Positions 1,254 through 59,799 of a stretch of DNA of 64,000 nt are shown in pieces. Positions within the stretch are counted from its first letter, which is position 1; every line of letters begins with the position of its first letter. A program made the position numbers and the translations under genes. The DNA is from Phoronis australis. Lineage: Eukaryota > Animalia > Phoronida. Location of the stretch: contig NMRA01000302.1 in assembly GCA_002633005.1 (NCBI GenBank), forward strand, positions 319,760 through 383,759, written 5' to 3'. A model generated the notes under the pieces. The model saw only the letters and a program-made list of their open reading frames with translations, was not told the origin of the DNA and did not search any database.

Positions 1254-1417
1254 TTAATTGGAAAGTGTCGCTGCGGCCAAAATCAAAGTAAGCATTGCTG
1301 GTTCGGTCATCTTTGCCTTGGTCCCTGCGTTCTCTATGCTTGCGTCCATTTGTTGGTTGTCGGCGTAGTGTTCCGCCTCCTTGTTTGCATCTACCACAAA
1401 CGTCCCTTGAATTTGAG
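1254..1417 (-). CDS. Paralog A exon 9, stalk plus probable GPI-anchor signal (...IENAGTKAKMTEPAMLTLILAAATLSN*)
   Basis: ttttcag| acceptor; small-residue omega region, polar spacer, C-terminal hydrophobic tail and no cytoplasmic tail; stop at the same position as in B. Confidence 0.82.
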
Positions 1418-4400
1418 CTGAAAACAATTGAAAGAGACTTTTGTTTAGACAAAATGGTACAATTGGATGTTGTTTATATCAACGGGAGCTAAATACATGT
1501 ATCATTTGTATGCGTAATTGCGAAGCTACTGAGAATCACGTTTCTGCAAGAAAGGCCAGCTCGTGATTTGTACAAGTTCTGCTTGCAAAGATACTTTGAG
1601 CCCGGATGTTAATCTTATTGGTTTCTGGGCTCGGACGGGAAGCAGTAGCGGTACTTTATTGCGTTTAGCAATACTTGACCGTCACCCACCGTATTACCAC
1701 ACCTTTAGGAACAAGAGTATCCATCAGGAATAATGCTTCTTTCGCAGCCTCCTTTTCACCCAGTTGGTTCGTATACTGGCCCGTCCGAATAGGTTTTGCA
1801 TATAAGTCCAGTTGATGTCCCTTGTATAGGCCCAAACAATAATTCCCATATAGGCGCAGTAGCTTTCTTTTTGCAAAATTGTCTTGCTTTTCATGAACAA
1901 CTTTCTGGCGTATTGCCGCCCCTTTAGGTACATGGGCTTATATCCGAAGTGATGCCTTTTTTCAAGGACTTGCTTTACCGAAGGGGTTCGTATAAGTTCG
2001 CGTATCAGCGCTGTTCGTCAAATGGTCATGGACCTTATGGCGCGGAAATAAGTAAAACGACTTGCTGAGTAACGTCGATGTCAATTGAGCCACGACTCGA
2101 GCCCAGTCTAGGAATTGATACCGTCACGGACACGGATTTGCACTACCTGGCTAGAGCATTTTTACTCTTGAGAAAGGCAACTAACCTCCATTGCGACACT
2201 CAACTCGGTTATATCGTGACATATTTAGATGATTCAATTTTAAATATGCGAAAAATACCTCAATGTTTGATCGAAATCCAACTTCAGATATCCAAATCAA
2301 AAGTTGAAATTCCAGTGGCAAAGTTCAAATCGTACATTGAAAATGTGTTCCTTGCTAAAAATCCAACTATTTTGGAAAGTGAATGAGCTAACGGTTGCAG
2401 CAGCGAAGCACACTCATTTTCAGTTTCGTATGATTCTCTGTACTTGAAGCAATGTTCCAGCAAAATACCCAACTAAACTTTTCCAAAAAATAGGGAGAAC
2501 GGATAGATATTTCACAAAATGAACTTCAAAATAGGAAATTGACTGAAACACGGAGTTGGAAAAACTGCAACAGCGGAAGCAGGTTCCGGGAATTACGAAA
2601 CGAGGCTGCACTAAGAGCAAGCCCCTGTGGGGATTTTTCCAGAAACAAGGTTAAAACAATCCCTGCCGCCAGTCGCTTTATCGGGATTGTTTGACATGTC
2701 TGGTAATATTGAAAATGTCAAGAGGTTAAGGTTTTCTCATTTACTTTAAACATGTCCCTTGACATCAGTAGCGTCATGACATTTCATTGACAGCAGCCAA
2801 TTGATTGTCTACAAGCTGCAATCGAAAACACCGCAAGCATAGGCGGTGTAGCATTGAAATGAGTGGAGAAACGGTCACAGACACAAAAATCCTCTAGGGG
2901 GCATCACATTAGTGGGACCCGTCCGAAAATTAATGTCGAGCCTACTCTGTCAGTTTCCATGAAGATTCTTCAGTACCGGGTTTCACGAAATCAATCGCAC
3001 AATGGCCGCATGGTGGTGGCCCACCTTAGAGAGGAAGACTCGCGAAATTCAATAGGGCGGCTAGTGGTGGACACTGCTGTTTCAAGGACAGTAACGACAT
3101 TTAGCAAGCCGTGGGCCCAGGCGAAATCAAGAACGTCCACCATTGGATAAATACTCCATGAAATCGTACTTCCTCGACCAGACGCCCGCTAGGTATCGCC
3201 TCCGTCCATGAAATAATAATGGCTGCGGCCAATGAGATTATATACAGTCTTCTTATCGTCCATCCATTCAAAAATACAAATGAAAAACGTCATCAGGAAA
3301 ATCCGTCAACTATTCCGAAGATACAGAGGCAAACGTGAAAACTAGAATCCCAAGTCACAGCAGTAGGCCTAGTCAAGACCGTCTCGAACATTCGCCATGC
3401 TTTAACTTTTATATAACAAATGTGCAAAATTTCGCGTACATTCGTCAAAGTGTTTTGAATATACAGCAGCGTACGCCTGGCGGACGGTCAAACAGACAAA
3501 CGGGCGGGTGGGCGGATGCACGGACGGACGGATGGAGGAATGGACCCGTAGATGTGTGGGGATGGTTCACAAACAATTATTTAATGATACGTTCGCCTAA
3601 GTTATAGCTTAATAAAATGTGTCAAAACCCGGCCTTAGTATACAACAAAACAACTTACCACTGAGTTCGAAATTGTTTGAAGTCACTGTATTCGAAGTGA
3701 ACCCTTTGACAGCATCCGGCACCGTCATTTTGCAACTGTTACAAATAGAATATAGCTTTTAACGACAGTTTGTTTTCGTTAGTATTACAAAGAATGGAAC
3801 AAAGTTAGTAGGGAAACAAGGGTAGGAAAAGAAATATGTGTTTGAATTGATTCCAAATTACATTGTAAGTGCCACTAATGCAGTGCAGCCATATCCAAGA
3901 GCAACCAAAAGAGTTTAGGCGAAATAAAAGGAGCAACATCAGAGATGAGCACAGAGGCAATGAAAACCCCTTTCAGTAACTTAAAACGACGCTCAAACAC
4001 AAACCACTGCTCTAGAATCGCGTATTAGTAAAAGTCAAGTATGGATATGTCAAACCTTTTTCACAAAAATTGACTGGTCTACCAAAATACATTATATTTA
4101 TTCTTATCTCGGGGAACTTCAAATACGAAAACTATACCGTGTAGTGAGAAAAAAGATTTATCAGAGCCACCTTGGAACTGCACAACCGCGTGGAAATTTG
4201 TTTACTACTTATCCGAAGTCAAAGTTTACATGGCTCCCCGACACTCAACCGGAAGCTCCCGCAAGGATTAGAGCAGCTCCGTATGTTCCCTCAATTCTTT
4301 AATTCAGTGAGTCGACATAATATTGAGTCAACGAGGTGTACGTATGATAGAAAGATGCCAGGGAAAACGAAGACAAAACTAAGTTTCGATCCTGAGGGTG

Positions 4401-7400
4401 TTCTGCGTCTGCATGCATGCAATCATCGAGAACCTCACGGTAATTTTGTAATTGCCAAATAAACTAATAACAAAAAACGAATGCTCGGAGTCGCCGCACG
4501 CCTCTGTGACGTACCTCACCAAAATTCCTCCACTTCATAGGTAATTTTAAAATTTTGCTGTTCCGCTCTCATTTGAAAGTCCCAACGAGACCGAAGATGA
4601 AATGAATTCTCTATAGGACATATGACAGTAGTCTGTAACTGGGATAACATATATATTATGAGCAATGTATTGGAAACTCATTTTGCTCAAAGGCACCTCA
4701 ACTTGTCGTTTGCTGTAAACTTGCTCATAACCAACAAATCTGCATTCGCCGTAAGTCGCCCAGTTGTCGGGTCATATGAAAGCTTCGTTGGTAGCCGAAG
4801 TTTCCGGGAGCTTTTGGCCTCCTCTTTGGCGAATGCGACCAAGACCATTCGTGTTGCTGGAAATATGAGGTATGAGTTGGTCCAGCACAAATCAGTAGAT
4901 TATTTTTTGGTTGGAGTATCAACCAAGTTAACCGCCGTAATAGCTTGAGAATTATTTCAATTATAAATTGCGTATGCCTAAAACGGCCGTTGCGTGGATA
5001 CGCTTGAGAGACAATTCATAAGTATTGCCATTTCACCATTACTCGAAAAATACGCTGTGGGGAGAAAAAGTTCAAAGAGACCTGGAACGCGATAAACAGA
5101 CTAAATTGCAATACTGACAGTGGTTCTCTGCAACTGAAACGAAATAGAGCTTGCTCACCAGATATTTTATGATGTATTCATTAAGATTAATTTCTGTTGA
5201 TATCAAAGCATTTTCTTGCAGTTTAATATTTCTATGGTACATGTATGTGAACTGCGCGCCACTTCGACAATTTTTCTCCCACGTCAGGCAAAGCACGTCT
5301 CCTTAGTTGCTATGGCAAGACATCGACGTAACTCATTTCCCTTATTCGGAAAATATGACCTTTGACATCAAGCGACTTCAAGCAACTGACTGTGAGCGCA
5401 TGCGCACATTCAACCTAAATGGGAGAGAGATTCGAAACCCTGTGGTAACCACAAAGGTTTTCCTTCGAATGTTTTGCAAAAATCGTCAACATTATGATCT
5501 TTTTCTAGAAATTTCTGTACAGCGTAAAGTGAATTACTCTGAACTAGACGTTGTGAGATGGTACTTACGTCAGGAATTCTTTTAAACAATATTTTGACGA
5601 GCTTGTGGTTCTATGCCTATTTAGAGTTTGCCGGTATCGTAAGCTTTTAACTCCATGAAAATGGAGATGGCATAAGGCAAAATTCAAGGCATTGGTAATT
5701 GAACTTTCTCGTGGCCGGGCTGACCAGTCAGTGCTCTCTACTCCTACAAATGTTGCTTGTTGAATAGCAGACTAATCCATCTCTTATGTTAGAAAGATGT
5801 TTTCTGAAGACGTGGCTAATTCCGTTTAAACATGGATTGAACATGGTTATGAATGGTATTCTGTTAGTGGTATTGCCTTTAGTTTTAGTTCTTAAACATG
5901 CATTTCGTGTGATTGAACGGACTTTGTCAAACTGTTGGTGTATAAGATGTAAGGGGAAATGACTTTGAACTAGATAGTACTTGAGTTCTTTTAAACGGTT
6001 ATTAAAGGCAGTTTCTTCTGAACGAATGCGACAAATTATGCTCAGGGAAAATTCCATGGTTTAATTTCGTCGTGGTTTGAAACACATTGATTCCATCAAA
6101 ATTTATAAAATTTCCTTCAGAGTTGTGGTTAAGGTATGTGCACTCAAGTCATCAGGACTGCGTTCAATGTTCCTAAGACCTCACAAGAAAAGCAATTTGT
6201 CGCGAGATTCCATTAGATATCGCCGTGTATTTTCAATGAATCTACTTGATTTTGGTAGATTTTTTTCGACCGGAGACAATTATTGAATTCTATCCATGTC
6301 GTGGGGATAAATGGTATACCACAATTCTCTTCCCTGGGATGTGCACGCATCAGTTTTGGCATTTTCGTAAAAAGGCTAATGGTATTGTTCAGTATGGTGT
6401 ACAGTACCTTCCTCTGCTTTAACAAATCCGATCAGAGCGCTACATGAAATGGGGACCGTGGATCCGTATTTCAACGTTTTGCCGTTGATGCCGTCGAGTC
6501 TCATTGCTTGCGGTGTCACTGCAATGTAAAAATGTCGTGTTAAGTGATAAGTGTTACAGCCGGAATTGACTATTGCAAATACATGAGGGAATAGCTCCCA
6601 GAAACAATGTACATGTAAACTTTGTATATCCTTGCAACAATATCTTAAACGAAAATGACTAATTGTATGAATTTATGTCCACGATTTTGAACTCGTGTGA
6701 AACCAACGTTTGACCCCACGCTCGAACATACGAAAAGCAGTGTACAAAGCACACAGGGAGCAACGCAAAAATCTGATGTCGCCATTACTTTAATTCTTCG
6801 TTGCTTTTCCCTTTGAAATCCCTGATAAATTGGACGTACGACTTGGTCAGTTGTAATTTGCCGATTGTTTTCAGACAACGTAAGATGACTACATTTGCCG
6901 TTTTGAAGTAATTGTATTTTTAATTTCTCTAATTTGAATTGTGCTCAAGTCTCGTGAACTATTGGTTCGCAGGTTCTAAACTTAAACCTACAAATTTGAA
7001 ATGAAATCGAAATGTTGAAGCATAATCTAAACTTTGTGATCATTCAGTGCCCACTAAAATTAGTCTCTGGTCCGTACACATACAGGCCACAACATACTAA
7101 TGCAAAGAAAAAGAAGTCTTCAGTCCATGCTAAAACAAAGCATAAATATATCCAGAGAGAAACGAGTTCGTCTTTGAGTTTGGAAGTTATTTACAAAAAG
7201 TAAGACGTTTTTAAAAGCTTCAAATAGTTGTGCTCTACACTTAGCTTTTTGTAAATGAGATGGAATGACGCATGAACATTTTGATAACGCCATTATCGTA
7301 CCATACATGTACATGTAGTCCAAAATCCAGTCCCTTGTCTGGAGGTAAAATCGTTTTAGAAATTGAACCTATTTTCTAGGTTGACCCTGAAGTCACAAGT

Positions 7401-10400
7401 TTCAAAACAGACACTAAAATGTGACAAGAATCGGAATTTTTGTTAAGTGATAAATTCTGAGGACAAAAGAATCACAGGTTTGTCAGAAAACTTCAAAATC
7501 AACGTAATTGTCAACCTCAAAGCAAAAAATGCATTTTTTGATAAACGCCTCCCTTGATATCATACCTTTGACTTAGCCTTTTATAGGAATCAAAATAAAT
7601 TTGAAGAAACGCTTTTTAGAGGTTTTTCACCGCCCACTTTCCTCCGTCTATCCCTTCTCTTTCCGTCGAGGATTTAGCTCCGCCCAATGACCAAATCACA
7701 CTTTCCGGCCGTAATTTCCGCGATCGGCGGAGCACTACCAAGCGCTTTACGGTTACCGCCATTTTCGTAATAGTCAACTTTCATTCATTCATAGGTCTTG
7801 TGGATCCAATAAACTAGCATGCATGCAATGGCATAATCCGATGGGAGTTTATATTAGTTAGCATAATGGACAGAGCCTACGATTTATTGCATCAGTGAAG
7901 TCGGTGAATGATGAATGCATTCGGCTATGCAGTGTATTTCACAAGTCCCGGACCGGGATCCAGGTCAGTGGCACGCCAAATACGGATTGATACCTATCGT
8001 CAGACATTAGTTATGGAAACCAGAAAAAACATGATATCCAGCGCGCACCCATGCAGCCAAAAAGGCGGGTGGACTAAAAAAAACGGGGACACCACTATGA
8101 ATTGCGCGTTTGTGCTTGTGGACTTTTGTCTCATTTTCCTGGACTTTTTGTTTCTCAGAGGCGGACCTTTTTGCCCACTTCGATGGGGGGCTCGTTCGGG
8201 GAGCCTCCCCCGGGTGCGCGCATGAGTAAACTTATACTTCAGTCTCCGGTAAGACCGGCCCAGCGAATAACGATCAGACCCTCGAGTGCCTCCGATAAAA
8301 TGAGCGAGACTTCACACGTTTGAGAACTTGATTTGTACAAGAAAGGAAGACTAGAGACAAGGTTGTAGTTCTATTTTGCAACTTGAAAGTGGATCAAAGT
8401 AGCAACACAAAATCACTGCTAAATCTCACCCCTGAGCTCGGTCATTTCTCGACCAATTTCACAGCATAATTCGTTCAGTATTTCTTTCAGTGCCTTTCGA
8501 AAATTCTCCGTCAAGAAATGTTTCTGTTCTGTATTTCATTTACATATCACGTCCACGTTGTACCATCATAGATACTCGTTAAGTCTAAGGTACCATTTAC
8601 CCCCGATAAAGCCGCGTTGACCTACTTCAGCTGAATGACATACAAACTCCGCCCACGGTTAATCACGTGATTCTGAGCGTATGGGTACTGCATAATTCTT
8701 GAAACTTCTGATATGATGCCGAATTTGCACTTGTCGGTCACCGCCGTAGGTTATTGCCGACTTCTTACGTTGCGATTTCGTAGATTATTTCAATTTTTGA
8801 ACATCGATTTCTCGGAGATGTGTGAATGGATTGCTTTGAATATTCGAATATTTGCTATTTGATACCTTAGAAAGAGAATGACGTCTAAAAATTTCGATTT
8901 ATGTCCTTAGCTAGTTTTTCATAACGAAGCCCTCAAAAATCAAGAGTACGGCCGTTTTTGCTCTAAAAAGTATATAATTAAACAACTAAGACCTAGTTCA
9001 AAAATCTGACACAGGGTTCCCTCGACAATGTCGTTATCACCTTGTTTACAAAATACCAATATGATTGGAGAAATAATATGTTTTAAAATCTCTGTTCGAA
9101 GTCATTTTTTTATTAAAAATGCATAAAACTCACGCCGATTTGTATTATCCTGACTTGAACCTACTGTGTAAGGGAAGTCAAGTCTTAACTTTACTCAGCT
9201 CAACTGCAAATACATGCTGCTCATCTTCCGTTCAAGTGGCTATAAACCAAATTTTGATTTGAACCATTTACTATTACGGAATTGGCCTGGGATTGTTCCT
9301 CAGTCAAATTTCTGTCTTAACAAACAACTAACAGTTCGTTACTGATACAAATCAGGCTCTACAGGTTGGCTTGTCAAGGCGTATTTCCTTTTCTCACACG
9401 ACTTGGAATGTGTTACGACACGACTGATTAATAACACTGAGTATGTATTTTTATATTACATGGGCGAATCACAAATTAGTGCAAAGTAGAAATCCATACG
9501 CCTTACATTTTATCGTCTGCAAAACATCAAGCGCGCGCCAACCAAGCAATGCCGGAATTCCATGAAGATATCAAGATTATGATTGACAAATCGACTCGAG
9601 CAAATGTACGTAATCCCAGTCGGAACGATATGCAAATAACTTCTTAAACGGACTCATCTTCGGCGGTGAATTCCATATCCACTTTCATTCATACGGAGAC
9701 GAACTCCCACTCAAGAAACGCGGTGCTGTCTCAAAGTCAATCCAGTGCCCACGCGCGGGGAAGCTCTGCTGACTCTTACTGATAATCATTTAAGTTTTAA
9801 TAGTACAACTTCAAATACTATTTATTGGGGTCTACTGACCTGAACATTTGTTACGGAAACTGGATGCAATTTTAAATTGTTAAGTTTAAGTAAAACTGTT
9901 GACAAAAAGTAACTGAGTCTTAATTAAATTGCGCAAATGTGTTTTTCAAAAGTGGCATCTTGCGGTTGAAAGTTTTAGACACGTCGAGTTTATCGCCAAA
10001 AACGATGGTTTTTAAAGTTCATGTGAGAAAACAAATCCTAAACTAGTCTCAGGTTTATGACATGGGCAAAACCTTGTAGAAATTTCGTCAAAATCCCGAG
10101 GCCAATGCACCGAGTACGCTACAGTGTACCATCTCGAGCGAGCCCCATGGCATCTGCGCAGGATCAAGTTGAGACCAATGTTATTGCATTAGGTGATCTA
10201 GATCGAAACTTCGCATCTTGTCAGAATTCATCAAATTTAGAATAGTGAGGTCAGAAATCGGATTTAAGGATCTAGTGGCCTTCCTCAACAACTCACAATA
10301 ACTTCCCTTCTTGTCAACAGGTGGCGTAGGATAGACCTTGGGACGTACTTTTTCTTCGGGTACCTTGGGACGTACTTTTTTTTCGGGTATCATCACGGTG

Positions 10401-13400
10401 CCATGTCGAACACCCAACATGTTTCTGCGCAATTTGAAACCGTTGCCTCCCTTTAAGTGTTGCTCGGCTACACATCTACATGTAAAAATATGTCAGTAAT
10501 GAAAAAGTTGACTAAAAACCTACCCTAATGTAAATTGGAAGAAAAATATAGATCTGTGACAAACAAAACGATGAACAAGGCATTATTTCACGATAATCTT
10601 CATATCTCAGAAGCCATAATAAAACGGACAGGAACAGATATTCATTGCATCATCTCTCTGCCAGATAGCTTCACAGACCCGCGTTCGCAATCTTTGTGCA
10701 GCTTTCAATCCCCGGGTGCACAGTGATGATGTGAATTAAGAACAGACACGTCAAACAAATAAATTGAAATACCAGCTACACATGTACCTTGCGAGAGTAC
10801 GTGTCTCATCATCAGGTGCATAGTGAAATGAACATGTTAAAAACAAAATGAACAGTGAAGGTGGAAACTAAGTATCAAGCTCGTCACTTAGATATCGACA
10901 GATAGGCGTATCCATTGTTCACTTTGTTTTATTTCTTATAATAAAGATAATGGCAAGCATTTATCGGTAACGGGCTGATGTGCACCCAAGGTATTATGAC
11001 CTGTATTGTTATGCCGTACAATCAGTAGGTGCGAATACCACACACTGTGGGAAGCCTACAACTCATGGAGCCATTGACCCAGTGTCCAGTAAACCGATGG
11101 GAGTTTGTCATTCATCACAGTTTTTTTTCATAACTGATCGTAAATGTACTTCAAAATCGTCAACCGAAATTTGTCGTTTTCTACACAAAGATTATCCGTA
11201 ATATTTACTACTGTAATCCGAGTTATTTTCCGGCCACAGGTGCAAACGCATAGTCTTGAATGAACCCATATCCGGCAAATATATGGACAACAGTCGGCAA
11301 AGAGAGTATTCCTTGTGCCCAATACAACCCTGTTTTATTCTTTCTTGTTTTATGCGCGTGACGTTGATTCTAATCATGGTGCTCCCTCTTGAAGTAGGCT
11401 AACTGGTCAACCGAAGTATAAAACACAAAATGATGTACACGGACACCGCGAAACGACAATTTCTAACGGACAGGCCATGCGTACGTGATCTCCAATACAA
11501 AATTGCATTCGGGAAAAGTCCGGAGAGTCCGTGGCAATTGTGCACCACGTGAACATACGCAAAACTATCGTCAACATAGCAAACACAAATGGGGATTTTG
11601 ACCGTATGATGAACGGCCCGTTTTTTACTTATGACATGAAAAATAGGGCAGCTTCCGTATTGGAACTCTTTAGAGTAATGAGAGCACGAATATGACTTCC
11701 GATGGATACCGACTCTGATTTGGTAAACAGAAATTCAATAATTATACAGTGGTTCGTTTAATTTAAGGCAGAGGAATAAAGTCCACTGCCGGTTCCTTCC
11801 ATTGTATAATTAGTTTAAGTGCATTAGTTTACTGTCTTTTTGCATTTTGACACCGGATGGGATCGAAATTCCCCGTTTCTGTTATCAGCCGCAGCCACTG
11901 ACTACTATTTTTTTCGCAGTGGGATGATGTCCTTGTTCATCCATTGATACACTGTATTTCGAAAGCTTTTTCGTTGAACAGCAGTGGAAATTTACCAGCA
12001 TTACGATAACATGAAAGATGTTGAAACGAATTGTTGATAGTCAATGTGACTATTGACCTTGGCTATGTTCTTTCATCGTTTGGACGTTAACATTTGTTTT
12101 GTGAGTTGAACTGGACACAATCTATCTCACATGTGCAATGGGAATTATCTAAAAGCAATGAACACTCGTGATTGCTACATGGAATTTTGCTTTAAGCATC
12201 AGATACCTGTGCTCTTTCTTCTAAGAACGCTGTAACACGTGAAGATGGCTGGAGAAATGGCCACCAGAGATAGACTAGGGTTTGGTGTAAACAGACCACG
12301 AAATTAAAACATGTCATTTCTTCATCGCCAATCTAAAGCCCAACCAACCTTAGCGAGTATCTTAACTGTGAAATAGCACGAGAAAAAAATTCCGTGAGTC
12401 GCTCCCTTATTATTAAAGCGAAGGGATAATGGTATTCATGAGCATTTCGTGAACGGCTTGAGTAACAAACGTTTACGTGTTTTGAGAAAAATACGGTATT
12501 GGTTAAGAATTTTTAAAACGTCTAATGTTAGATGTTTAAACTTTTAGGATCTGGAGTAGAAAATGTCTACTTTTAATAGAAAATATTGGGTTCAAAATGT
12601 TAGTAATTGCTATTTCACTGGTTTTGGCGCCGGCTGGTTGGATCAAGGAGTTGGAGGGTGAATATTATATAACGGGGAATGTAATCAGTATTATATAACG
12701 GGGAATGTAATCAGTATTATATAACGGGGAATGTAATCAGTATTATATAACGGGGAATGTAATCAGTATTATATAACGGGGAATGTAATCAGTATTATAT
12801 AACGGGGAATGTAATCAGCGCTGTGAGACATTGATACCAACTGCCAAAACTAGATTCTTGTTGCAAAGCTATGAAGTCAACTTACTTTCTCAATCGTTAA
12901 GCGCCAGACGTGATTCAGACGTGCAGGCCAATTTTAATGAGTGTTAAGGGAAGTCATATCAGGATTCAGAGTCAGGTAATAGGCTACTGTACCTCGAAAA
13001 CAGAGCGAAAACCGTACCTATAATTGTTTCCTTCTGTGTACGTGGTTTCCTTGGATATAATCACTGTCCTATCGTCAGTACTAAGTTTCACATCGTGAAT
13101 AAGCCTTATGTTTTTAAAGTCACTGTCTGTTTCATACAGACTCACGGAGTTTGGTCCTGAAAAGAAACTATCAGTCACTTGCCTTGGCTGTGTTTCGGAA
13201 ACGCAAGAATCTCGTGAAGAAAATCATTGTGATCCCTTGCTACGCTTGTTACACCATAGACTATGGTGCATGGACCGCCAACTCCGCATACATTCAATGG
13301 ACGAATTCTGTGCTCTTACGCATAAGCCGTTACGTCATTATTCTCTAGCGACACTTGGCCAAATCATCTGGTGTTATTTCCGGCAAGAACGCCGTCAAAT

Positions 13401-16400
13401 CATGGTCGGTTGTTGTGTGGTCGGGTGGTAGTATAATTGATAAAAGTACCCACGATACCTATTGTTCTGCTATTGGAAGACTGAACAGCGTTTCAATGCT
13501 GAATTTTTTTTTCGTGTTACTGAACGATAAAGTAGATGCGAGAATTTCCCGTCACAGTACACTAACTGCAAACTACACCAGATAATTCAGGAGAGTTGCG
13601 AATCTGTTGTCTATAATCTACGGTTACACACAGAAATATATCGCAACGTTTTAGCGCGAGGTTCTTACGTCTAAGGAACGCACGCCAGGTGTTAATCAAA
13701 GTAGCGTCTCTGACCAAAAGACCAAGATTGTTCACCTGAGGTAAACCAACGCTTTCTAGTGGCTAGCAGACATTTATTTTTCATTAGAGACTTTTCTGAA
13801 TGCGATTAAAGATGAATGCAAGTATTGGTGGACTTGAGGCAAAATTATTAAAAGATGACAGTGGTCATTCAGAAAACCAGATAGCAAATCTTACAATCTT
13901 TCAAAAGATCTAAACCCTGTTTTGGAGAATCAACCAAACCTCGTTCTGTAACCTTCTAATTTGTGATTGGTGTATCACTTTGAGTGGTAACAGGTGGATT
14001 GAACTAAAAACTCGTACTCCATATGTCACACGGTGGATATTATGGTTCTTTGTGGGCTGACTCTCAACAAAGTTACAATGTACTAACTCGCCGAAAGCGT
14101 AGGTTACGTTCATCCATTTAACAGACTTTGAATTAAGTTTTGAAATTTTGTTCCAAATTTTGAGGATTGTCGATGATTACAGAGCAATATTTTTGTTTCA
14201 GACAAATGGTTGGGAAGGTTGTTCTTAATGTCTTTTGATAGGCTGAAACCGGATGTGGTTCCCGGTGTAGATGGGAATAACTTATTCTATTACCAAAACC
14301 GAGACCGTCAAAACTCAAGAAACATCTGTCTCCCGTCGCTTCCAGCATGCCAACGACAGCATGACTAGTTGAATCTGAACAATGCCACTGGCGAAAAGGA
14401 TGTTTGCACAAAAGTATAAGCGGATCATTACAATATGTTGTGGTTTCTTTAAAAATGCCCATTAAAATACGAGCAATGCCATTTAAGTTGTACGCAAAAC
14501 TAAACTAGGAAAATGGGCAAAACTTCCCGGGCGCTGGCTGTTGGTAACATTTTACAATACTGCATTATACATATTTTTCTCATTTTCCTCTTACCTTTCT
14601 GTTAAAACCAACCCAAAAACTCAAATTTCGCTCAGTTCCAGAGAAAATAAAGTAGGCCTACTAGTGACCTATTCAAACTAGGTAGCCATTTGGAATGCGC
14701 GATTTTTGCCAAGTGGCTGCTAATCTCAATGTTTCGTAGCTGAAACTGAATGCCTCGATGTTCAAAAAGTCATTCAAAACTGCTAAAAGGTGGGGTGAGA
14801 CAGGAATAGGGCGGGAGACAAGAAGAACAAGACAGATGGGAGAAAGGAGGAGAAAGGGGCGGAGAGCGGGTAGGGGGAGACAGTCACAGGGCCGAGAGAC
14901 ATTGTGTGTCTCTGTGTCTGTGTCTGTGTCTCTGTGTGTGTGCGTGCGTGCGTGCGTGCGTGTGTCTGTGTCAAGCGTCCAATATTCTTACCTGCACTGA
15001 AGTCTTCCTGGCCATCCATAAAATGAGCTCTGCAGACGATCGTCAGTTTTTCACCGTTCTTTTTACTGTTCCAGCCCGTTGACGCTAACTTCGAAATGCG
15101 GGGTGACCCTGAAATAAGTGATCGTCCACTGTACCAAATTCCAATAGGCCAACCTAATAATATGCGTTTGATTAACCACACCACAACAAGAATTGTACCA
15201 TCGACATGCCGAAGGTTCCAGAGCTTATGACAATGATAATCAGTTCTAAATCCTGTCTAGCACAAACCAAAGTAAACATTTTTGTTGTTTTTTTATTGAT
15301 ATTTTTGACAAATTATTGTTATCTTCGCCTGAGCTAGGCAAACAGTGACAAAAAGGACGAGTGAATATTAAAAATGGACTCTATCGAGGCACGTGTCCTA
15401 AAAGCTTTGCCTATGCTCAACCCACCTCTAAAAGGTACACTTTAACTAGAACCTTGTTGTTTGAAGCCACTTATTATCCTGTTTAGTGTTCCGAGAAGGT
15501 TGAAAGAAATGCTTCACACAATCTATTGAATTAAAGTGTACTTTTATTTAATGATGCATTTAACCGAGATGTACGGGATAGTGTCCCACTGATAATTTCA
15601 TAAAAAGAATGCTGTTAAAGGAAATTTGAATTTACATGGAAATGTTTCGATAATTCATTACTTAAATTATTTTGCAAACATTTTTAGTCTGGTCTGCACG
15701 TCACCTGTTTAAGACTTGCGTATTCATATTAATTTACTTCATCAAATATTGAGCATAAATTAAGACAAATTCGCTGTTCTATTAATACGTAATTTCGAAT
15801 GAGATAGTTCTGCAAAAATTGTCTTCCTGTGTCCTATGTGGTGAAGTGCCGGGCTGAATATAGGCGAGAATATAGATCGCGAGACTTGTTGAAGAATTTT
15901 TATTGAACCTGAAACAGGAGCTAAGTTTTCCATTTTATATTCGTTTTATTTTCCCTTCATTTAAGAGTTGCATCTGGAACCAAATACGGAAGAATGCAGC
16001 TCATGAAGATTTTTTTTGTACTTTTGTATCTTTTCAGTTCGGGTGGGTGGTGGCTTAAAAAGTAAAACTTTAATAAAGTACATGTATGTAGATTTTGAAT
16101 TTTTGAATTATAAGCTTTTGAGGGGTTTAAGGATCTTTTTTTAACTAAACTAATTTTGAACTTTGCCAGCCGGTACTCAAACTTACTAGGTTTACGTCAC
16201 GTTTTATCCTGCGCGTCAGAAATATTTTCGAAGATAGCCAACAGAAGACAAAGCAACATGTATTGTTCCCTTTGCGTTGAAATCGGGCAATGTTTGATGC
16301 GTGAAGCGACCGCCTTCTCCGGTGGACAATTCGGGGGTTCTCTAGTCTGTTTTGTATGGCTGTCCAATCAATTTCGAATAAACCACTCACAGACTTGCAG

Positions 16401-28734: not shown

Positions 28735-28740
28735 TTTATT
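28735..28740 (-). terminator. Putative polyadenylation signal AATAAA of paralog B
   Basis: Conserved with 1061-1066, ~125 nt after the stop. Confidence 0.5.
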
Positions 28741-44000: not shown

Positions 44001-47000
44001 TTCACGTTATGTACACTGCAGTTTAAACTATTACATAGAATTCTTGTAACCAACTCTTTTCTAAAAAATAACGTGGTGGAATCTGATATATGTATTTTCT
44101 GCCAGTCACAAACTGAAACAGTAGATCACATCCTTTTCGAATGCAATAATATAAAAACATTGATGGAACAATTACGCCGTTGGGTGTTGTCGGTAAAAAG
44201 TATCAATTTCATTATTGACAAAAACAATGATTTTCGGCTTGCCCATAAGTAACTGAAATAAAGTTTTAAACTGAATTTTTTTGCAAATAAAATATTTATT
44301 TACGTATCTATGTGTAAAAATTATCTCAAATTTCCGCCATTTTGTTAAAATATTAGAAAGATAATTTTATACTTAAGAAGAATTTTTATTATTAAATAAT
44401 CGTAATTTAGATGAATACCAGGCAACCTGGAGAAACTGGTTAACCATATTTTTCCTGACAACATCCTACTAAAAGTGCGTGGGTATGTTGAGGGTGGCGG
44501 GTGCATGCGTCCATGTGTGTGTCTTCAAAATGAGAATGGCTTGCATTTTTGTCTTAGTATTTATGTTCTTTATACCATTAAAAAAGACAACAAGTGTCAT
44601 TGCAATGCAAAAGGTGAATTTGGGCGTTTGATTTGAGTGTGACACATATGTGCAAACTCATTAAGTACTATTTGAAATTCTTAAACATGAATGACGATAG
44701 ATTGCCAAGACGATGTTACATAATGCAGCGTGAAAACGATTTGAAAGGTCAAAAGAACTGGTTTACCTTAGTAAAATTTATCATTCACAACTGGATTTGA
44801 CTGTGTTTGGTTGCAACAAGGGGCTGGTGATGAAATGATTTTTAAAATTTTTTAAGTAAAGACATAGGGATATAAATTTTCAATTGTGGTCGTTTTCACT
44901 TGCAAATACGGATAAATGAAATTTTCACCGTTCAAATAAATCTGAATTAACATGCGAAAAGTATTTATGTAGTAGAATGTCATTACATAAAGTATTAGTT
45001 ATAGCAAATTTGAGGTGTTCGACGCATCATCTTATGACTGAGTTGAGTAGGGGAAACAATGTACCTTGACCAGAAAGAATTTGTAAAGCTTGTAACACTG
45101 ATGAAATTGAAACAGATGCACACGTTTTATTTGATTGTCCTATCCTTGCAGACCTACGGAAATATCTATTGCCACAATGTATTCTTGGAGATAGAAACAT
45201 TAAAGCACTCTTAGGTTCAGATTCTATTTCGCTTTAAGTAATACAACATCCTTCATTCAAGAAGCAATTGTAATTAAGAGCGAATTTTTGAGTATTTGAT
45301 GAATTGGCGAGATGGTACTTTTTGTTAATAAGTTGAACTGTTTTGTTGTTGTTGTTGTTGTTTTTTGTTATTGTTATTAATGTTACATGTTAACTCTTTT
45401 AAGGTCAGGTGTAGAAAATGTCTACTTATGATAGAACATGTTGAGTTCAAAATGTAAGTAATTTCTATTTCAACACAGTTTTGACACCGTCTCGTTGGAT
45501 CAAGGAGTTGGTGGCAAAATATCATTTAACGCACTTTGAAGTCATCGATATCATTTACGAAAACTGAATACGTGTTGCCAAGCTATAAAGTCAAATAATT
45601 TTTTTCAACAGCTAAGCGCCAGGCATTATTCAGACGTGCAGGACATTTTTACTCATTGTTAATGAAAGACATGTGAGATTACAGTCAGGCAACAGTCCAC
45701 GTCTTCATAACACAGCATAAAACCGTACCTATAATTATTTCCCTCTTTGTATGTGGTTTCCTTGGATATGATGTCGGTCCCTTTATAACTGAGTAGCTTC
45801 ACTTCGTGAATAAGCCTGATGTTTTTAAAATAACCATCTGTTTCGTACAGACTCACGGATCTTGGTCCTGAAAAGAAACCTTGAGTCACTCGACTTGACT
45901 GTCGTTCCGGAACTGCAAAAATTTAGCGAAAGAAGTTAAAGAGATCTCGTCATCGTTTATTACAGAGTGGAAATATATCGCAGTTTTATGTGAACTTGCA
46001 ATTTCAGGAGGCTCAGGTCCTCACGTCTACGGACTAAAGCACGCCAGGTGTCAATCAAAGTTGCGTCACTGACCAATAGACCAAGATCGTTCTCATGTTG
46101 TAAACAAACACCTTCTGATGACATTTTCCTCGGACACTTTTCTGTATGTTAAGACAAATGCAAGCATCGGTGAATTTGAGACAATAGGGTTAAAAGGTGT
46201 CGGAGAACATTCCGTAGATCAGATAGCAGATATCCCGATCGTTTAACGGGATATAAAACCTAGTTTTCGTCAGTCTACTAAGACTCGTTCTGTCACCTGC
46301 TAATTTATCATTTGAGTGAGGCTTAAACCAAAAATGCATACTCCCCATGCCACAGGTTGGGTATCGGGGTTCTTGGCGGGTAATCAGTGTATCTTGCGTA
46401 AAGCTTGGGTCACGCTTGTCCATTTAGCAAACTTTGAAATGAGATTTCAAATTTTGCTCCAAACTTTTGAGGGTTGTCGATGGTTACAGAGCAATATTTT
46501 TGTTTCAGAGAACTGGCACGGAAGGTCGTTTGGAATATCTGTTGCTTGGCCAATACTGGACTTGGTTCCCAGTTTATCTGGAAATAACTTTTTCTATTAC
46601 CAAAAAAAACCCTGACCGGCAAAACTTAAATGAAAGCGCTCCGAGGAGCAACACTTGGCGAAATTAACAGGAAAGACGACGATAGAGATGATGACAAAGA
46701 GGACGACTATGACGACGATGGTGGCGATGATGAACAATTCAAGTAAGGATAACATTCACAAGACGAACGTAGAGGCCAGACATCATATAGGCTACAGTCT
46801 TGAACGACACTTGGCGAAATTAACTGAAAAGACGACTACGGAGATGATGACGAAGAAAATGAATATGATGACGATGATGATGATGCTGAACAACATCATA
46901 AAATTCATATGAAGCACTTAGATGTCATAAATCAGCAAGAAATAGGCTACACTCTTGCCCAATAGAAACTAAACAAACATCAATGCAGCAAGAGCGCTCA

Positions 47001-49602: not shown

Positions 49603-49648
<46 letters not shown>

Positions 49649-52600
49649 AGTGAGAGTGTGTGTGCGCGCAAGTGAGAGTGTGTGTGAGTGTATTTTGAGA
49701 GCCTATGACAAGTCTCCATTTTCTTACCTGCACTGAAGTCAGCCTGGCCTTTCATAAAATGGACTCTACAGACGATCGTCAATTTTTCACCGTTCTTTTT
49801 ACTGTTCCAGCCACTTGACGATAACTTCGAAATGCGGGGTAACCCTGAAATAAGTGCTCGTCCCCTGGATCAAATCTCTATAGGCCAACCGAATAGTATG
49901 CGTTTGATTAAGCACACCGCAACAAGAATGGTACCATAAACATGCCGAAGATTCATCAGAGTTTATGACCCATGGGAACCAAAAAAATCACTTTCAAGTT
50001 ATACATAGCACAAACCAAAGCAAACTTTATTGTTGTTGTTTTTATTTTGTATTTGATATATTTTTTTGAAAAACTATTGCTATGTCTACGCTCGAGCTAG
50101 GCAAACAGTTATCAAACAAGACGAGTGAATATCAAACAATTATGCTTTGAATTCAAGGCAAGAAACACAATAGAACCGGTTTCTACATAACTTTTGTGTT
50201 ATCATGTCCTTGTTGTTTTCTTTCATTAGTAATCTCACAAGTTTATAATAAGTAACTTAAAACCTCTAATAAATTACATTTGCTAAGTATTACTAAAAAT
50301 ATGCCACATGAAATGCTGAAAATTATACTGACATAAATCTTCATTAAGAAAGCACCACTGGATTTTTGAAGAACAGCACGAGATTGCAGCTATACTGACA
50401 CCAACAAGGATGTTTTTGAAAACAACATTCCCTTTCATGTTGAGGTCACGTTTACACTGAACTCAAAAATAATGTGATTTGTGTTTTCCAGCCTCACATA
50501 CGTATATCTGAGGATGAGGGCATTGTACACAAGTTGATGTGCCCATGCTCACTGGGTGATGGTGGGTATAACCAGCGGAGCTGTGATAGTCATGATGCTG
50601 TGCCTGTGGCAGATGCTGAGAATAGTCCATTACAGTGAAAAGGGGCCCGTTCCAAAAACCTAACTTAGCGAAGACAAATCTTAAATCTTAGTAAATTTGA
50701 AAATAAAAGTTAAATTTGCGCCAGTTATTAGTTTATTATTGTTGTGGCATATACATGTACGTTTGTGCGACCCCTGTCGAGTTGTCTACTTCTTCCGCTT
50801 TTGTGTCACGAGCTTGCGTTTAAATACAGTTACATATTTGGCTGCACTTTGGTGTTTGTTTGTCTACTGGCGTTGTCTAAAAACCCTTTCAAGAAACAGA
50901 TCTTAAGTTTGAGTTAAGTGTTTGACATAAGTTTTCTATTGATTTTAACTAACTTACTAAACGTGGAAGTTTCAAAGTCTGGAAGTTTTAAGACAAATCT
51001 TAAACTTAAGTCAAAAATGAACTTAAGTCAGCGTCTAGGAACAGGCCACAGGTCTATAAAAAGCGACCTGTCACCTGTATTTTGCTCATGCCTGTGAGTA
51101 TTTCGTATAAAGACAGTTTTGGAAATTCAGTTAAGCACACTCACTATGCATTCATGTGACTCTGTGAAAGAAAACACTGCTGACATGACGTTTGGAATGA
51201 CCTTTATCATGTTCCTTCCAAAGCCCTGTCTACCCCCCGCAAAATCCCAGATCCCCATGTGTGCAGTCTGCGTCAGAACGTTATTTCACTTCGTAATGCT
51301 GCTTAGTGTTGTTAATGCGCCCTTGATTTGTAACAGTGAGCATTCTGTACAAATGTCTAAAACTGAATTGTGACAAACCGAGTCATTTTTCTTGTGTGTC
51401 AGTTGAACAGAATTATAAAAAAGCGAATTTGCATGGGCTGAGAGTGTGCTATTTGGGAATATTGACAGGGCTGTTGATATATTTATTCATGTTTAGCACT
51501 GTATGTAGTCCTTATTATCCATTTAGCTAAATAATCAACTGTTTTGGCCCTGCGCAAAATATGGTCTACATCTTGTCCTCGCGAAGTAATTCAAAAGTTG
51601 TTGCAACCAGAGAATCAACTGACCGAAATAAGATACGCTTAGGGCCTTACACGAAACAGGGTCCGCTTCGTCGCTTTAGGTGCATCTCGAAAGTGGTGGT
51701 GACCGCTGAGGGAGAGCGGCAGTACGATAATTGTGACGACGGAAATTAAGTGTTGGCGCCACAGGGGTGTCTTTCATGAAAATTGACTTAAGACAGAGAT
51801 TTGGTCTTGCAATCCACTCACTTTAGAAAATAAATATAAATTATCTGAAAATATACTCATAAATCTTTCTTATTGATAAAATTTGTACAAATTATTTCCA
51901 GGCTATTGTGTATTGATGGTTACAGGACTAAACCTTGCAACTGTGAAGTGAAAACATTATTACGGCTTCACTGTATGCCTCTGACATGAATGTTCATTAA
52001 AGGCTGTATTATTGGCAGGTTCATAATAAGGTACGGGTTTTGGCAAACTAAACAAAGCACAATAAAACAAATTCATTATTTGACAGTTTTGTATAATGTT
52101 TGTCTGAAAATTAAGTATAAATACTGAAACAGCCATGACAATGTATTGCCAACAGCACATTCTATCAAGTCTTCAGCTGTTGAAGTACACTAGGCAATGA
52201 AAGGTGTTTTTCTCGTATATATTGCAGTGAAGAAAATTTTATTTTATTTCATTTTTTTTTTGATTCATCACTTTTGGTTTCTTTATCATAAATGAGGAAT
52301 TCGCAAGAGTCTACTGTTGTTATATGCTGGCCTTATACAAATATACTGACCACAACAACGGGCGTCTACCCCAACATATTTCCGCAATACAAGGGTTTGG
52401 TCACATATTGTGCCGCTTTATCTACTTTGCTTGGAGTCAAGAGTCAAGCAAATGATATTTTACTCAGACTCAGTACTTAACGTGTCTAATGCATGTATTC
52501 GTTTTTCCTGCTACTTAGTACTCGGATAAATGTGATTTCTTTATGGTACTAATAAACAGAATTTATGCCCGATATCATTTCCTAGTTTCATAATGAAAAT

Positions 52601-55600: not shown

Positions 55601-57845
55601 AGTGAAAATAATTCTTTATGAAGCCTGTTCTTGGCCATACAATATCCCAATTGGGACTCCTCCGACTGAGATCAGTTACCCATTGAATACTCTAAGGGTG
55701 TATAGAAGTCACTGAATATTTTAAAAATTGCACACTTACTTGCCCATCGAAAGCCTTGCAAATCTTCACGAGCTCTAACATACAATCTTGCCCTCATTGT
55801 TTCCCACCTCATTACATTCTGTAGTTCAGACGAGAGGGGTGCTGAACGTGCGATAACATCTGGCTCTTTTGTTAACTGCCCAACTCAGTCTTTTGTTCCG
55901 TATGATAAGAAGCAGGCAAATTATCTCCCAGGCTTCAAAGGAAACGTATGGTGGTTGCACGCTATTGCCGAACGCGTATTCAGAACACAGTCAAACCAAG
56001 TGCGTTGGTAATCCGTTTGGACGGAATAGATTTCTTAAATTCTCTTGTAGTTGGGCGATTTTGGTGGTTCAAAAACTTAACATGATCAGCATTTGACGAG
56101 GAATTCAGAAATGCTATTGGTTTAAGCGCAAATATGTTATAACTTAACTTTCGTTTTTATCAGCCCAGCCCAGTCAGGCTAGATATGATCTGATTGGGGA
56201 TTAGAGCAATTATCGAACAAAAGAGCGCAGGCCCTCCAACCATAAGTGACAGACTGGAGTTAATCAGTCGTGTAAGATATTGGCTAGGGGGGTAAACTTC
56301 CCAACTTGTTGGGCTATAGAATCGAACAAGTTGGGAGCAACGGGATGTCGACGTCATGTTTCGAACAAGTCGCTTAGGTACACGGTTTGTTGGTAATGCC
56401 ACTTTTTGTACTGACTAACTCGTCTTTTTTCCGAATCTCGTTGAGCAGGACGACCGCGTTTCGCCCTCGGCCGTACACTACCAGTCTCCACCATTTGTAT
56501 TTTTGTTAACTTCTGTGGCTGTGCATCCGTTGTTGTGTACTATCATTTTATTTTAATGATTATCCTTTTTATTCCTTGTAAATATCTCATTCGTTCGCAG
56601 TATTAAAAGCGATTTCTTCGTTTTTTTGCTCGTGTTCAAAGTTAATTCTAACCTTTTGAACTTTAAGTCATACCAAAAAAACGGCTAAAACGGCGTTAAG
56701 GGGTATTTTGTCTATAACTCGGACAATAGGCCTTTAAAATCAAGCAATGTTTGATGAACCCGAAGGACAATCCGGCTTGTCTCTACCCAAAAGGGAACCT
56801 CTATTCTGTCTGTAGATAGTCATCCAATGACTTATCAGTGCTGAGCAAACGAATTAAAGTGAGCAAACCCTTTTCTAGTTGAAAAACATTTAAACTAATT
56901 TCCAAAACTACTGCATGGTAATCGAACGACCTGACGTCATCGTACATTTGCACTTGTGTTTCTCGTTGTCAAATTTGTCCCACTTGTTGTTGCCCATGCA
57001 CGTCGCTTCGATGGCATTATCTTTGCTCTCGTCGTCACCGTTGAATTTCAGGCCAAATATACAATCGTGCGTGATCTTCACACCCTTCGCGACCTGTCCC
57101 GTGCGAGATGGTTTGTAGCCAAAATATTTGTCGATTTGGCACATCTCTGCAATCGAATTGCGTTCTAAAAATGACTTAATTCTACTGCCCATAATCGTCT
57201 GAGACCCGTTAGGCTACCACGTCACTATTTCAGAGTTATAATAAAGCCCAATTATTGAAATGTTAAGGTTCACACCAGTGGCGAAAACTCTAGCGTTTTA
57301 CAGTAAATAGCCAAACAAGATAGTTCTCCGCGGAGGGGTAAGTTTCGCAAACGGTAAATTTATTTCCATACCACTCGAGTCTCTCTTAAGGCGAAATTTG
57401 ATGTCAAATTGGTACGTTCGCTCTCTGCCTTCAACTTTGAATGACGTGACTATAGAACAAATGCCTCTTACCCCTGCGCAAGTGTGTCCTTTGAAGTAAG
57501 CTGTCTGGATGCAACAGCGATGGCGAAAACGCCTGTAGTTTAGGGGTAACTCAAATCTCCAGCAGAAGCGATTCTTATCATCGTTCACGTTACTGGCGTT
57601 TTTATGTTATCTGCAGTACTATGCAAAATTTTTAGCCAGCGTTTTAGCCAGCATTTGAACCGATTAACAAATAGCTTGCTGAAATGAGATGAATTGTTCA
57701 ATGCTGCACTTCCTGATAACGATAGCCCTGTGACACACTGTACGTGACACACTGTATTCTTACCTCCCCTGGCCAGAGAAATGAGGCTGCAGATGGCAAT
57801 GTGTAACGGAAACACAACTGAAACAAGATGTGAAACAACGTGCAT
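28864..57845 (-). CDS. Paralog B: 9-exon gene for a predicted GPI-anchored Sushi/CCP + 2x Ig-like surface protein, 406 aa. join(complement): 57845-57764, 57146-56946, 49844-49728, 45867-45729, 37055-36886, 35171-35061, 34244-34085, 30446-30370, 29027-28864
   Basis: GT-AG introns with the same phases as paralog A. The spliced CDS is 1221 nt and open with no stops. Introns are enlarged by TE insertions. Confidence 0.88.
29162..29409. mobile_element. PIF/Harbinger-type MITE with CAG target-site duplication in intron 8 of paralog B
   Basis: TIRs gggcccgttccaaga / tcttggaacaggccc, flanked by cag...cag; empty site gcCAGctc at ~1557 in A; second copy inverted at 50643-51048. Confidence 0.85.
30370..30446 (-). 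CDS. Paralog B exon 8, Ig2 end
   Basis: 77 nt, 18/25 aa identical to A. Confidence 0.85.
31230..31400 (+). mobile_element. tRNA-head SINE-like repeat with a 22-bp palindrome gttatctcactagtgagataac
   Basis: B-box ggttcgaaac; shares ~100 bp with 63480-63580. Confidence 0.5.
31660..31870. repeat. Degenerate ~41-bp minisatellite (core gtacccacttgg)
   Basis: 4-5 visible core repeats. Confidence 0.7.
34085..34244 (-). CDS. Paralog B exon 7, Ig2 middle
   Basis: 160 nt, 34/54 aa identical to A. Confidence 0.82.
35061..35171 (-). CDS. Paralog B exon 6, Ig2 N-part
   Basis: 111 nt, 30/37 aa identical to A. Confidence 0.85.
36886..37055 (-). CDS. Paralog B exon 5, Ig1 end plus Pro/Thr/Lys hinge
   Basis: tttag| acceptor, T|gtgagt donor, 170 nt (9 nt shorter than A, frame kept). 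Confidence 0.85.
37873..39379. mobile_element. Harbinger-like DNA transposon remnant nested in a hairpin-ended element, itself carrying short MITEs (~38230-38380, ~38715-38875)
   Basis: Terminal inverted repeats ccgatttcataa(g/a)ggtg; subterminal aaacctggttt arrays; splits the element homologous to 9440-10102. Confidence 0.6.
42190..44450 (+). mobile_element. Decayed L1/Tx1-type LINE (RT through zf-RVT) in intron 4 of paralog B
   Basis: [60 protein letters not shown]...[10 protein letters not shown]; many frameshifts. Confidence 0.85.
44680..45300 (+). mobile_element. 3' fragment of a second non-LTR retrotransposon (CR1/L2-group-like)
   Basis: [11 protein letters not shown]...LRCSTHHL..E...ERICKAC...[12 protein letters not shown]; clade assignment uncertain. 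Confidence 0.65.
45729..45867 (-). CDS. Paralog B exon 4, Ig1 middle
   Basis: 139 nt, conserved splice sites, 36/47 aa identical to A. Confidence 0.85.
46630..48842. repeat. Tandem pair of ~1.1-kb units (46630-47765, 47766-48842) with internal (GAC/GAT)n-rich subrepeats, ending at an N
   Basis: Both units start atgaaagcgctc..gaggagc..acttggcgaaattaac; absent from copy A; n at 48843. Confidence 0.8.
49575..49690. repeat. (TG)n microsatellite
   Basis: Visible; paralogous to 14903-14971. Confidence 0.9.
49728..49844 (-). CDS. Paralog B exon 3, Ig1 N-part
   Basis: 117 nt, conserved splice sites, 33/39 aa identical to A. Confidence 0.85.
50643..51048. mobile_element. Harbinger-type MITE, same family as 29162-29409
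   Basis: gggcccgttcc...ggaacaggcc termini; reverse-complement similarity. Confidence 0.75.
56946..57146 (-). CDS. Paralog B exon 2, Sushi/CCP-like domain
   Basis: 201 nt; 58/67 aa identical to A; all Cys and Trp kept. Confidence 0.85.
57764..57845 (-). CDS. Paralog B exon 1, signal peptide ([27 protein letters not shown])
   Basis: ATG, G|gtaaga donor, 82 nt as in A. Confidence 0.85.
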
Positions 57846-59785: not shown

Positions 59786-59799
59786 TGTGAATATTAAGT

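Follow-up and report, generated by a model that had tools for sequence, protein, structure and literature searches.

We analyzed a 64,000-nucleotide stretch of the Phoronis australis genome (GenBank assembly GCA_002633005.1, contig NMRA01000302.1, positions 319,760 to 383,759 of the forward strand), hereafter the window, which carries two genes, A and B, predicted to encode small surface proteins with one Sushi module followed by two immunoglobulin (Ig)-like domains. Self-comparison aligned ~0.2-25 kb of the window with 28-58.5 kb as collinear copies. Genes A and B are tandem paralogs, both on the minus strand, with A extending from ~24.75 kb to 1.06 kb and B from ~58.33 kb to 28.7 kb. An initial annotation, made from the sequence alone, had described a pair of nine-exon genes whose GT-AG splicing gives stop-free frames of 409 and 406 codons; the two proteins of these models are identical in 294 of 409 columns. 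The collinearity, strand, splice sites and open frames of this description all stood, as did the conservation of exon lengths and phases between the copies (the phases are the same, and the sole length exception is exon 5, with 179 vs 170 nt), but a tenth exon had been overlooked. RNA reads add an upstream 22-nt coding exon, here exon 0, to each gene, and the corrected proteins are 407 amino acids (A) and 404 amino acids (B) long, with all 18 introns of the two ten-exon genes being GT-AG. The new acceptors sit 28 nt inside the annotated exon 1 (18015 in A, 57817 in B). Because the reads splice exon 0 to these positions, the ATGs at 18043 and 57845, previously taken as start codons, are intronic in the observed transcripts and were rejected. 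No further family-like exons were found in the window by tblastn beyond A and B, and no third copy is present there.

The transcript evidence comes from three raw RNA runs (X1, X2, and X3) and one contig set, all under the same species label; paired read counts are given for X1 and X2 in that order. In A, all nine junctions were supported by reads, eight as joints and the 0-1 junction as loose ends. The eight junctions originally predicted for this gene were all seen, as joints in 339-705 reads of X1, 254-562 of X2 and none of X3, in an orientation that fits a minus-strand gene, while at the 0-1 junction reads depart from the reference at 18017, their further sequence coming from ~24.7 kb (345 + 265). 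For B, the reads covered junctions 0-1 to 4-5 and 6-7, with 5-6, 7-8, and 8-9 lying outside the stretches covered. Six of its nine junctions were supported, including a direct joint from 58251 to 57817 between exons 0 and 1 (360 + 325 reads) and five of the eight predicted ones, three as joints and two (4-5 and 6-7) as loose ends. Per million records, junction reads amounted to ~38 (X1) and 35 (X2) for A, 27 and 26 for B, and 0 in X3. Under set assumptions, the level of A and B is roughly 700 transcripts per million. The two genes are real, expressed, and co-expressed, being abundant in two of the three runs and absent from X3.

Minor forms were also observed. Exon 4 of A is skipped in 41 + 30 reads, causing a frameshift and a stop at residue 134; exon 2 of B, which encodes the Sushi module, is skipped in frame in 16 + 6 reads, and a minor donor of B exon 0 after 58247 is used in 20 + 23 reads. 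A transmembrane isoform as the main product was considered and rejected, as no alternative last exon of A was found among the joints listed and the read depth is zero at 100-716, downstream of the A 3' untranslated region (UTR). Separately, all 41 + 43 sense reads differ from the reference at position 58330, 3 nt from the B transcript start. This change, which removes an upstream ATG at 58331, may be allelic, stem from another copy, or reflect an error of the assembly.

Both copies are under selection, because the ratio of nonsynonymous (dN, 0.17) to synonymous (dS, 0.36) divergence between A and B is 0.48 (bootstrap 0.35-0.64; nine-exon models, ~ten intronic codons included) and because no frameshifting gap occurs in 1215 coding nt where ~21 would be expected from the 69 non-triplet gaps per 3984 non-coding columns. 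A and B are under purifying selection yet evolve fairly fast. A pseudogene or chance reading frame was rejected on the basis of the spliced reads and of this selection. The initial annotation had also concluded that both genes are selected, from exons preserved among decayed introns; the conclusion was right, and the dN/dS ratio and the absent frameshifting gaps are better evidence for it, but the decay was overstated. Indeed, identity is 82% in coding DNA and 78% in those non-coding blocks that can be aligned (picked by BLAST and thus biased upward), which puts the decay of the introns little above that of silent sites. By exon, dN/dS is lowest in the Sushi exon (0.22) and reaches 0.95 in the hinge exon, and A-B identity is 87% for exon 2, 85% for exon 3, 50% for exon 5, and 63% for exon 7. 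In the A hinge, a 27-bp tandem duplication (96% match) at 10335-10389 produces a repeated 9-residue Pro/Lys motif that is not in B.

The hallmarks of a Sushi or complement control protein (CCP) module are four Cys residues in C1-C3, C2-C4 spacing, a C-x-x-G motif, a Trp before the last Cys, a length of ~60-65 residues, and a phase 1-1 exon. The Cys/Gly/Trp pattern is found at residues 28-91 of both proteins and in 0 of 5000 shuffles, and the exon phases fit too. A hidden Markov model (HMM) built from 22 fetched Sushi repeats scored A at 18.8 bits and B at 12.4, the best of 2000 shuffles reaching 8.7. With the Pfam Sushi model (PF00084), A scored 13.6 bits (E = 0.095), under the gathering cut-off of 20.7, and B gave no match; over 14 exon translations, Pfam returned this sub-threshold match, one chance-level match, and nothing else. 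In the ESM Atlas, the first match of exon 2 scored 0.96, with 207 of 256 features in common and 15% Sushi among the cluster members, and a comparison of exon 2 with 1.84 billion representatives gave six weak matches to repeat proteins, three of them Pfam Sushi proteins. Among PDB sequences, a profile of exon 2 retrieved no CCP. AlphaFold2 models of exon 2, alone and with a six-row alignment, were of low confidence (mean predicted local distance difference test scores of 45 and 46), and Foldseek and VIA-align gave no match of use with them. The CCP call is thus borne out at the sequence level by the pattern, the HMM, and the distant Sushi matches, and it is well supported that exon 2 encodes one predicted Sushi/CCP-like module. 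The module begins 2 residues past the point where the signal peptide is predicted to be cleaved; in the reads, exons 0, 1, and 2 follow one another directly.

A profile of exons 3 and 6 from both genes retrieved 264 PDB sequences at E ≤10 (best E 0.0038). The best 60 of the 264 were all immunoglobulin superfamily chains, in register at the first Cys, that of the B strand in an A'-B motif, with weak E-values and in a database where antibodies are over-represented. In the superfamily, the F-strand Cys comes 55-75 residues after that of the B strand. The Cys pairs of the two domains, Ig1 and Ig2, have 60 and 65 residues between them, and a D/E-x-G-x-Y-like motif before the second Cys is degenerate in Ig1 and mostly absent in Ig2. 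From these motifs and the Cys pattern, two antibody-type Ig domains are likely, and they would presumably adopt two disulfide-linked Ig folds. The initial Ig calls held for the Cys spacing and the A-B strands; the remaining parts of the domains match no Ig, and exon 7 gave no usable match in the ESM Atlas. The C-strand Trp is lacking in both domains, as all Trp residues (81, 93, and 105) precede Cys118; Ig domains without the core Trp are known (PMC9546547). Ig1 and Ig2 are encoded by three exons each, with the same phases (1, 1, 2) and a phase 2 intron just before the second Cys. That they arose by internal duplication is a guess that the matching intron phases favour and the sequence does not. 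The extra Cys of B exon 5 (Cys198) could link dimers.

Hydrophobic stretches are found only at the N- and C-termini of both proteins, which we read by eye, aided by hydropathy values and a simple rule. In A and B, the first 25 residues look like a signal peptide, with cleavage probably after Gly25. At the other end, small-residue omega candidates 21-29 residues from the end are followed by a spacer and a hydrophobic stretch of 13-14 residues (19-residue hydropathy mean 1.1-1.2), after which the protein ends; a glycosylphosphatidylinositol (GPI) anchor would be attached near residue 380-383. The GPI tail that had been proposed is therefore present in its arrangement in both paralogs, with the qualifications that the tail is short and the anchor was read by eye, and the overall layout of signal peptide, Sushi, Ig, hinge, Ig, and C-terminal hydrophobic tail is supported. 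The mature chains have an isoelectric point of ~9.2-9.3 and a net charge of +14. Neither protein contains an N-glycosylation sequon (chance of 3% and 5% given composition), a transmembrane helix, a cytoplasmic tail, or an immunoreceptor tyrosine-based inhibitory or activation motif (ITIM or ITAM). The features of both genes are listed in the table.

Features of genes A and B, with positions in the window
Feature	Position	Strand	Evidence
A exon 0, coding part (22 nt); start codon 24701-24699; 5' UTR extends upstream; absent from the initial annotation	24680..24701	-	345 + 265 loose-end reads at 18017 match here; A-type junction reads; GT donor
A exon 1, remainder of predicted signal peptide; acceptor 18015	17962..18015	-	Reads
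A exon 2, one Sushi/CCP-like module; Cys28, 54, 75, 91, Trp81	16495..16695	-	Junction reads; Pfam; ESM Atlas; distant matches; HMM
A exon 3, likely Ig1 A-B strands; Cys118	14992..15108	-	Homology, junction reads, profile
A exon 4, likely Ig1 middle	13018..13156	-	Junction reads
A exon 5, likely Ig1 Cys179 and domain end, then Pro/Lys-rich hinge	10297..10475	-	Homology, junction reads
A exon 6, likely Ig2 A-B strands; Cys263	6408..6518	-	Homology, junction reads, profile
A exon 7, likely Ig2 middle	4697..4856	-	Homology, junction reads
A exon 8, likely Ig2 Cys329 and domain end	3659..3735	-	Homology, junction reads
A exon 9 (coding section), ending in a stop after an acidic stalk, N383 as omega candidate, and a hydrophobic tail of 13-14 residues	1254..1417	-	Junction reads, hydropathy
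A 3' UTR; read pile-ups stop at 1060-1069; AATAAA at 1130 and 1066	1060..1253	-	Reads
B exon 0; reads begin near 58333; start codon at 58272-58270; coding 58272-58251; main donor after 58251; absent from the initial annotation	58251..58333	-	Reads
B exon 1, predicted signal peptide; acceptor 57817	57764..57817	-	Reads
B exon 2, Sushi/CCP-like module	56946..57146	-	Reads, pattern, HMM
B exon 3, likely Ig1 A-B strands	49728..49844	-	Homology, reads, profile
B exon 4, likely Ig1 middle	45729..45867	-	Homology, reads
B exon 5, likely Ig1 end with extra Cys198 (not in A), then Pro/Lys-rich hinge	36886..37055	-	Homology; loose ends from exon 4, 241 + 206 reads
B exon 6, likely Ig2 A-B strands	35061..35171	-	Homology; junction 6-7 loose ends, 386 + 271 reads
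B exon 7, likely Ig2 middle	34085..34244	-	Homology, reads
B exon 8, likely Ig2 end	30370..30446	-	Homology to A
B exon 9 (coding section), ending in a stop after a stalk, N380 or S383 as omega candidate, and a hydrophobic tail	28864..29027	-	Homology to A, hydropathy

The C-terminus bears on the possibility that A and B are secreted structural or matrix proteins (of tube, cuticle, mucus, adhesive, or synaptic matrix) in which the hydrophobic tail is a processed pro-peptide and no GPI signal. The shortness and low hydropathy mean of the tail would suit such proteins, as would the abundance, the Lys/Pro richness, and the tissue restriction, and CCP and Ig modules are described in the secreted Drosophila protein Hikaru genki (Hig, PMC9083331) and in Oikopleura house proteins (PMC3390340). 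We nevertheless consider this distinctly unlikely, since the omega-spacer-hydrophobic arrangement is placed at the same distance from the end in both paralogs and no low-complexity repeats occur outside the hinge.

Searches for homologs used single exons of 52-66 residues as queries, and missing relatives are for this reason weak evidence. Exon 2 scored against 0 of 5 candidates among longer proteins, the alignment of exon 7 from A and B against 0 of 121 candidates, and none of the 492 and 147 pattern matches in metagenome contigs was confirmed. These single-exon searches gave no close relative, in agreement with the earlier failure to name an ortholog. In the literature searched, mostly without subscription papers, no description of the Sushi-Ig-Ig order with a GPI anchor was found. 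A and B are lineage-specific; Sushi-plus-Ig surface proteins as such are already known, with the Botryllus fester co-receptors (FcoR) and Drosophila Hig as examples.

A similar layout is that of Botryllus schlosseri FcoR, with a signal peptide, a Sushi module followed by two Ig domains, and clustered paralogs (PMC12582321, PMC12065747). FcoR differs by an extra N-terminal V-type Ig before the Sushi module and by a transmembrane helix and tail with ITIM, hemITAM, or core tyrosine motifs, which A and B do not have (PMC12582321). By eye and without alignment, FcoR shows no sequence likeness to A and B, and, unlike them, it has a Sushi module with extra Cys, a shorter Ig Cys spacing, and many sequons (PMC12582321). 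The Botryllus fester family (FF) likewise combines one Sushi module with Ig in a small surface protein of a duplicated family, but in the order Ig then Sushi and with three transmembrane segments, and the variation of FF1 is concentrated in the distal Ig (PMC12582321, PMC12065747). In the FF and FcoR families, the first Ig is encoded by one or three exons, so that three-exon Ig domains do occur (PMC12582321). Hydractinia Alr proteins share divergent Ig domains, many without the core Trp, and tandem paralogs; in contrast to the three exons per Ig and the absence of a tail in A and B, each Alr Ig lies on a single exon and is accompanied by an ECS as well as by a transmembrane helix and tail (PMC9546547).

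No protein resembling Ciona vCRL1 was found among the matches of the A and B exon searches. vCRL1 is a transmembrane protein with several CCPs. Like A and B, it is an invertebrate Sushi-domain surface protein, first proposed as a self-marker; it differs in being described as highly polymorphic and needed for the blood system (PMC9265791, PMC8849226, PMC6916515). Drosophila Hig combines CCP and Ig modules in one extracellular protein but has five CCPs and one Ig and is a matrix protein of the synaptic cleft, with no GPI anchor mentioned in the available part of its description (PMC9083331). The Dpr/DIP/IgLON and ZIG-8 proteins are small, possibly GPI-anchored, non-signalling adhesion proteins with two or three Ig domains that expand by duplication (PMC10084454). 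They differ from A and B in having neither a Sushi module nor a Pro/Lys hinge between the Igs, and no sequence match to A and B was found. Their Ig cores are canonical.

A and B also invite comparison with complement regulators of the CD55 kind, GPI-anchored CCP proteins that protect host cells. They share a CCP module and a predicted GPI anchor with these, and in factor H basic CCPs bind polyanions. However, known complement regulators need two to four tandem CCPs, and CD55/DAF-type regulators carry several in tandem and no Ig, whereas A and B have one CCP exon each; absence from one run also fits general host protection poorly, and we regard this function as highly improbable. A and B thus miss defining features of FcoR, FF, Alr, and the CD55-type regulators. 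By analogy, the best model is that of the small lipid-anchored Ig adhesion proteins (Dpr/DIP/IgLON/ZIG-8), which A and B may most resemble in the way they work.

The RNA reads also revealed a third transcript type. About 70 reads per run have an exon 2 start that matches neither A nor B, with M27T, K32E, and F34V relative to A. Q22H is also present in 7 X1 reads of this type, and S94T, found in 66 + 52 reads, may belong with the changes at the exon 2 start, judging from the similar number of reads. The third type, at ~1/8 of the A level, was seen at 57122-57776 and 15105-16494. The window does not encode it, and it may combine A- and B-like stretches as a mosaic. It points to another copy or allele outside the window, and since its ratio is constant in X1 and X2, a third paralog is suggested rather than an equal allele. 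All five of its visible differences from A change an amino acid, three of them in the first Sushi residues. Another study's contig departs from A at 7 of the 159 sites compared in the Sushi exon (4.4%), against 18 for B. As a further observation, 4 + 5 reads carry three letters in place of 1097-1139 in the A 3' UTR, possibly the UTR of the third type.

A rough estimate, with repeat reads subtracted by scaling from X3 and in samples that may share their genotype with, or be related to, the sequenced individual, places ~92-93% of A reads at ≥99% identity to the reference and 7-8% at 95-99%. A heterozygote with alleles 1% apart would place ~17% of reads below 99%. Because only 7-8% of A reads fall there, X1 and X2 hold no equally expressed A allele more than ~0.5% away. 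For the 5' half of B, 26% of reads are at 95-99%, cross-mapped reads included. Allorecognition determinants in general show very high allelic polymorphism, strongest in the distal domain. The survey of alleles here gave a mixed picture, in which A is mostly reference-like, yet a minor third type and a divergent contig exist.

These data bear on the proposal of the initial annotation that this is an allorecognition locus like fester or Alr, which is not supported so far. We weighed it as a polymorphic self-marker locus comparable to Botryllus fuhc/FF/FcoR or Hydractinia Alr, in which the GPI-linked A and B would serve an unlinked receptor as ligands or decoys. The combination of a Sushi module with two Ig domains does recall the FcoR ectodomain, and three-exon Igs are shared with FF and FcoR (PMC12582321). 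The amino acid-changing differences of the third type, the distance of the contig from A, and the share of less identical B reads would also fit. Fester and Alr proteins, however, are transmembrane proteins with tails, and their polymorphic members vary most in the distal domain (PMC12065747, PMC9546547, PMC12582321). A and B have no transmembrane helix, tail, ITIM, or ITAM; their distal module is the most conserved between the paralogs (Sushi exon dN/dS 0.22), A-specific reads are largely reference-like, and expression is absent from X3. Such a locus is therefore improbable here. A bolder possibility, for which the chances are similarly slim, is that at least three co-regulated GPI-tethered Sushi-Ig-Ig genes, exchanging sequence and diversifying at the Sushi tip, would supply the ligands or decoys of a recognition system not yet described in invertebrates (for self, gametes, or microbes), independent of FcoR and Alr and without a signalling tail of its own.

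The reading we prefer, to which we give about an even chance, is that A and B form a likely GPI-anchored, non-signalling coat, confined to one tissue or stage, whose Sushi-Ig head, set on a hinge, binds a shared and probably acidic partner. The signal peptide-bearing products would reach the surface and likely be held there by the GPI anchor, with the flexible and variable Pro/Lys hinge holding out the conserved basic Sushi-plus-Ig head. The head would likely bind the shared, likely acidic partner in adhesion or innate recognition; the ligand could be a sulfated glycan, the matrix, a microbial surface, or a protein partner of another cell, and signalling, if any, would run via a separate transmembrane co-receptor. 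Divergence is greatest in the hinge and Ig2 and smallest in the Sushi module and the start of Ig1, so the duplication likely serves dosage or the tuning of reach and avidity more than new specificity. Several observations weigh against this reading. No Ig structure was matched by profiles built from the later portions (middle and end) of the Ig domains, neither domain has the usual C-strand Trp, and the alignment of Ig1 with Ig2 is no better than shuffles (z -1.25 to 0.86). In addition, the exclusively non-synonymous changes of the third type fit diversifying selection better than a fixed ligand, and the pairing of a basic head with an acidic ligand is an idea derived from composition.

The expression pattern also raises the possibility that A and B are gonad or gamete surface proteins (of sperm, egg, or follicle cell) that bind the coat of the other gamete, like the GPI-anchored ascidian protein Urabin. 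Their on/off expression across runs, high level, basic charge, fairly fast evolution, and lack of database relatives would all fit, and both GPI-anchored sperm proteins and a follicle-cell protein with a sushi domain have been described from ascidians (PMC9265791). On the other hand, X1 and X2 are nearly equal in levels and ratios, and the distal domain bears no sign of positive selection between A and B, and we consider a gamete role rather unlikely.

Other elements in the window lie outside the coding exons of A and B. Fragments of Penelope-like elements, with reverse transcriptase-associated and GIY-YIG parts, are found at 18650-19546, 58770-59831, and 5728-6060; the piece in A intron 6 matches a section of the copy upstream of B with 93% identity, and the named relatives (brittle star, ascidian, and jellyfish) are 38-40% identical. 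Between the two genes, at 26868-27661, two overlapping plus-strand frames have no match in Pfam and resemble a broken Polinton-type capsid gene. Minisatellite arrays occur in non-coding DNA at 733-916 (61 bp), 12663-12818 (26 bp), and 47829-48152 (~160 bp), and an Rfam search gave no match.

The A/B family, which likely forms a surface coat for adhesion or recognition, is abundant, tissue-restricted, under selection, and without database relatives. At present, it is one more lineage-specific Ig/Sushi mosaic of a class that recurs in several invertebrates, which is plausible and only mildly surprising. Invertebrate recognition genes come to light one lineage at a time and cannot be aligned between phyla, so A and B are usable candidates for such genes, and the exact exon map permits direct cloning and allele surveys. 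Should polymorphism and a link to fusion, fertilisation, or microbe binding be established for the family, it would represent a further independent use of Sushi and Ig domains in recognition, in this case lipid-anchored.

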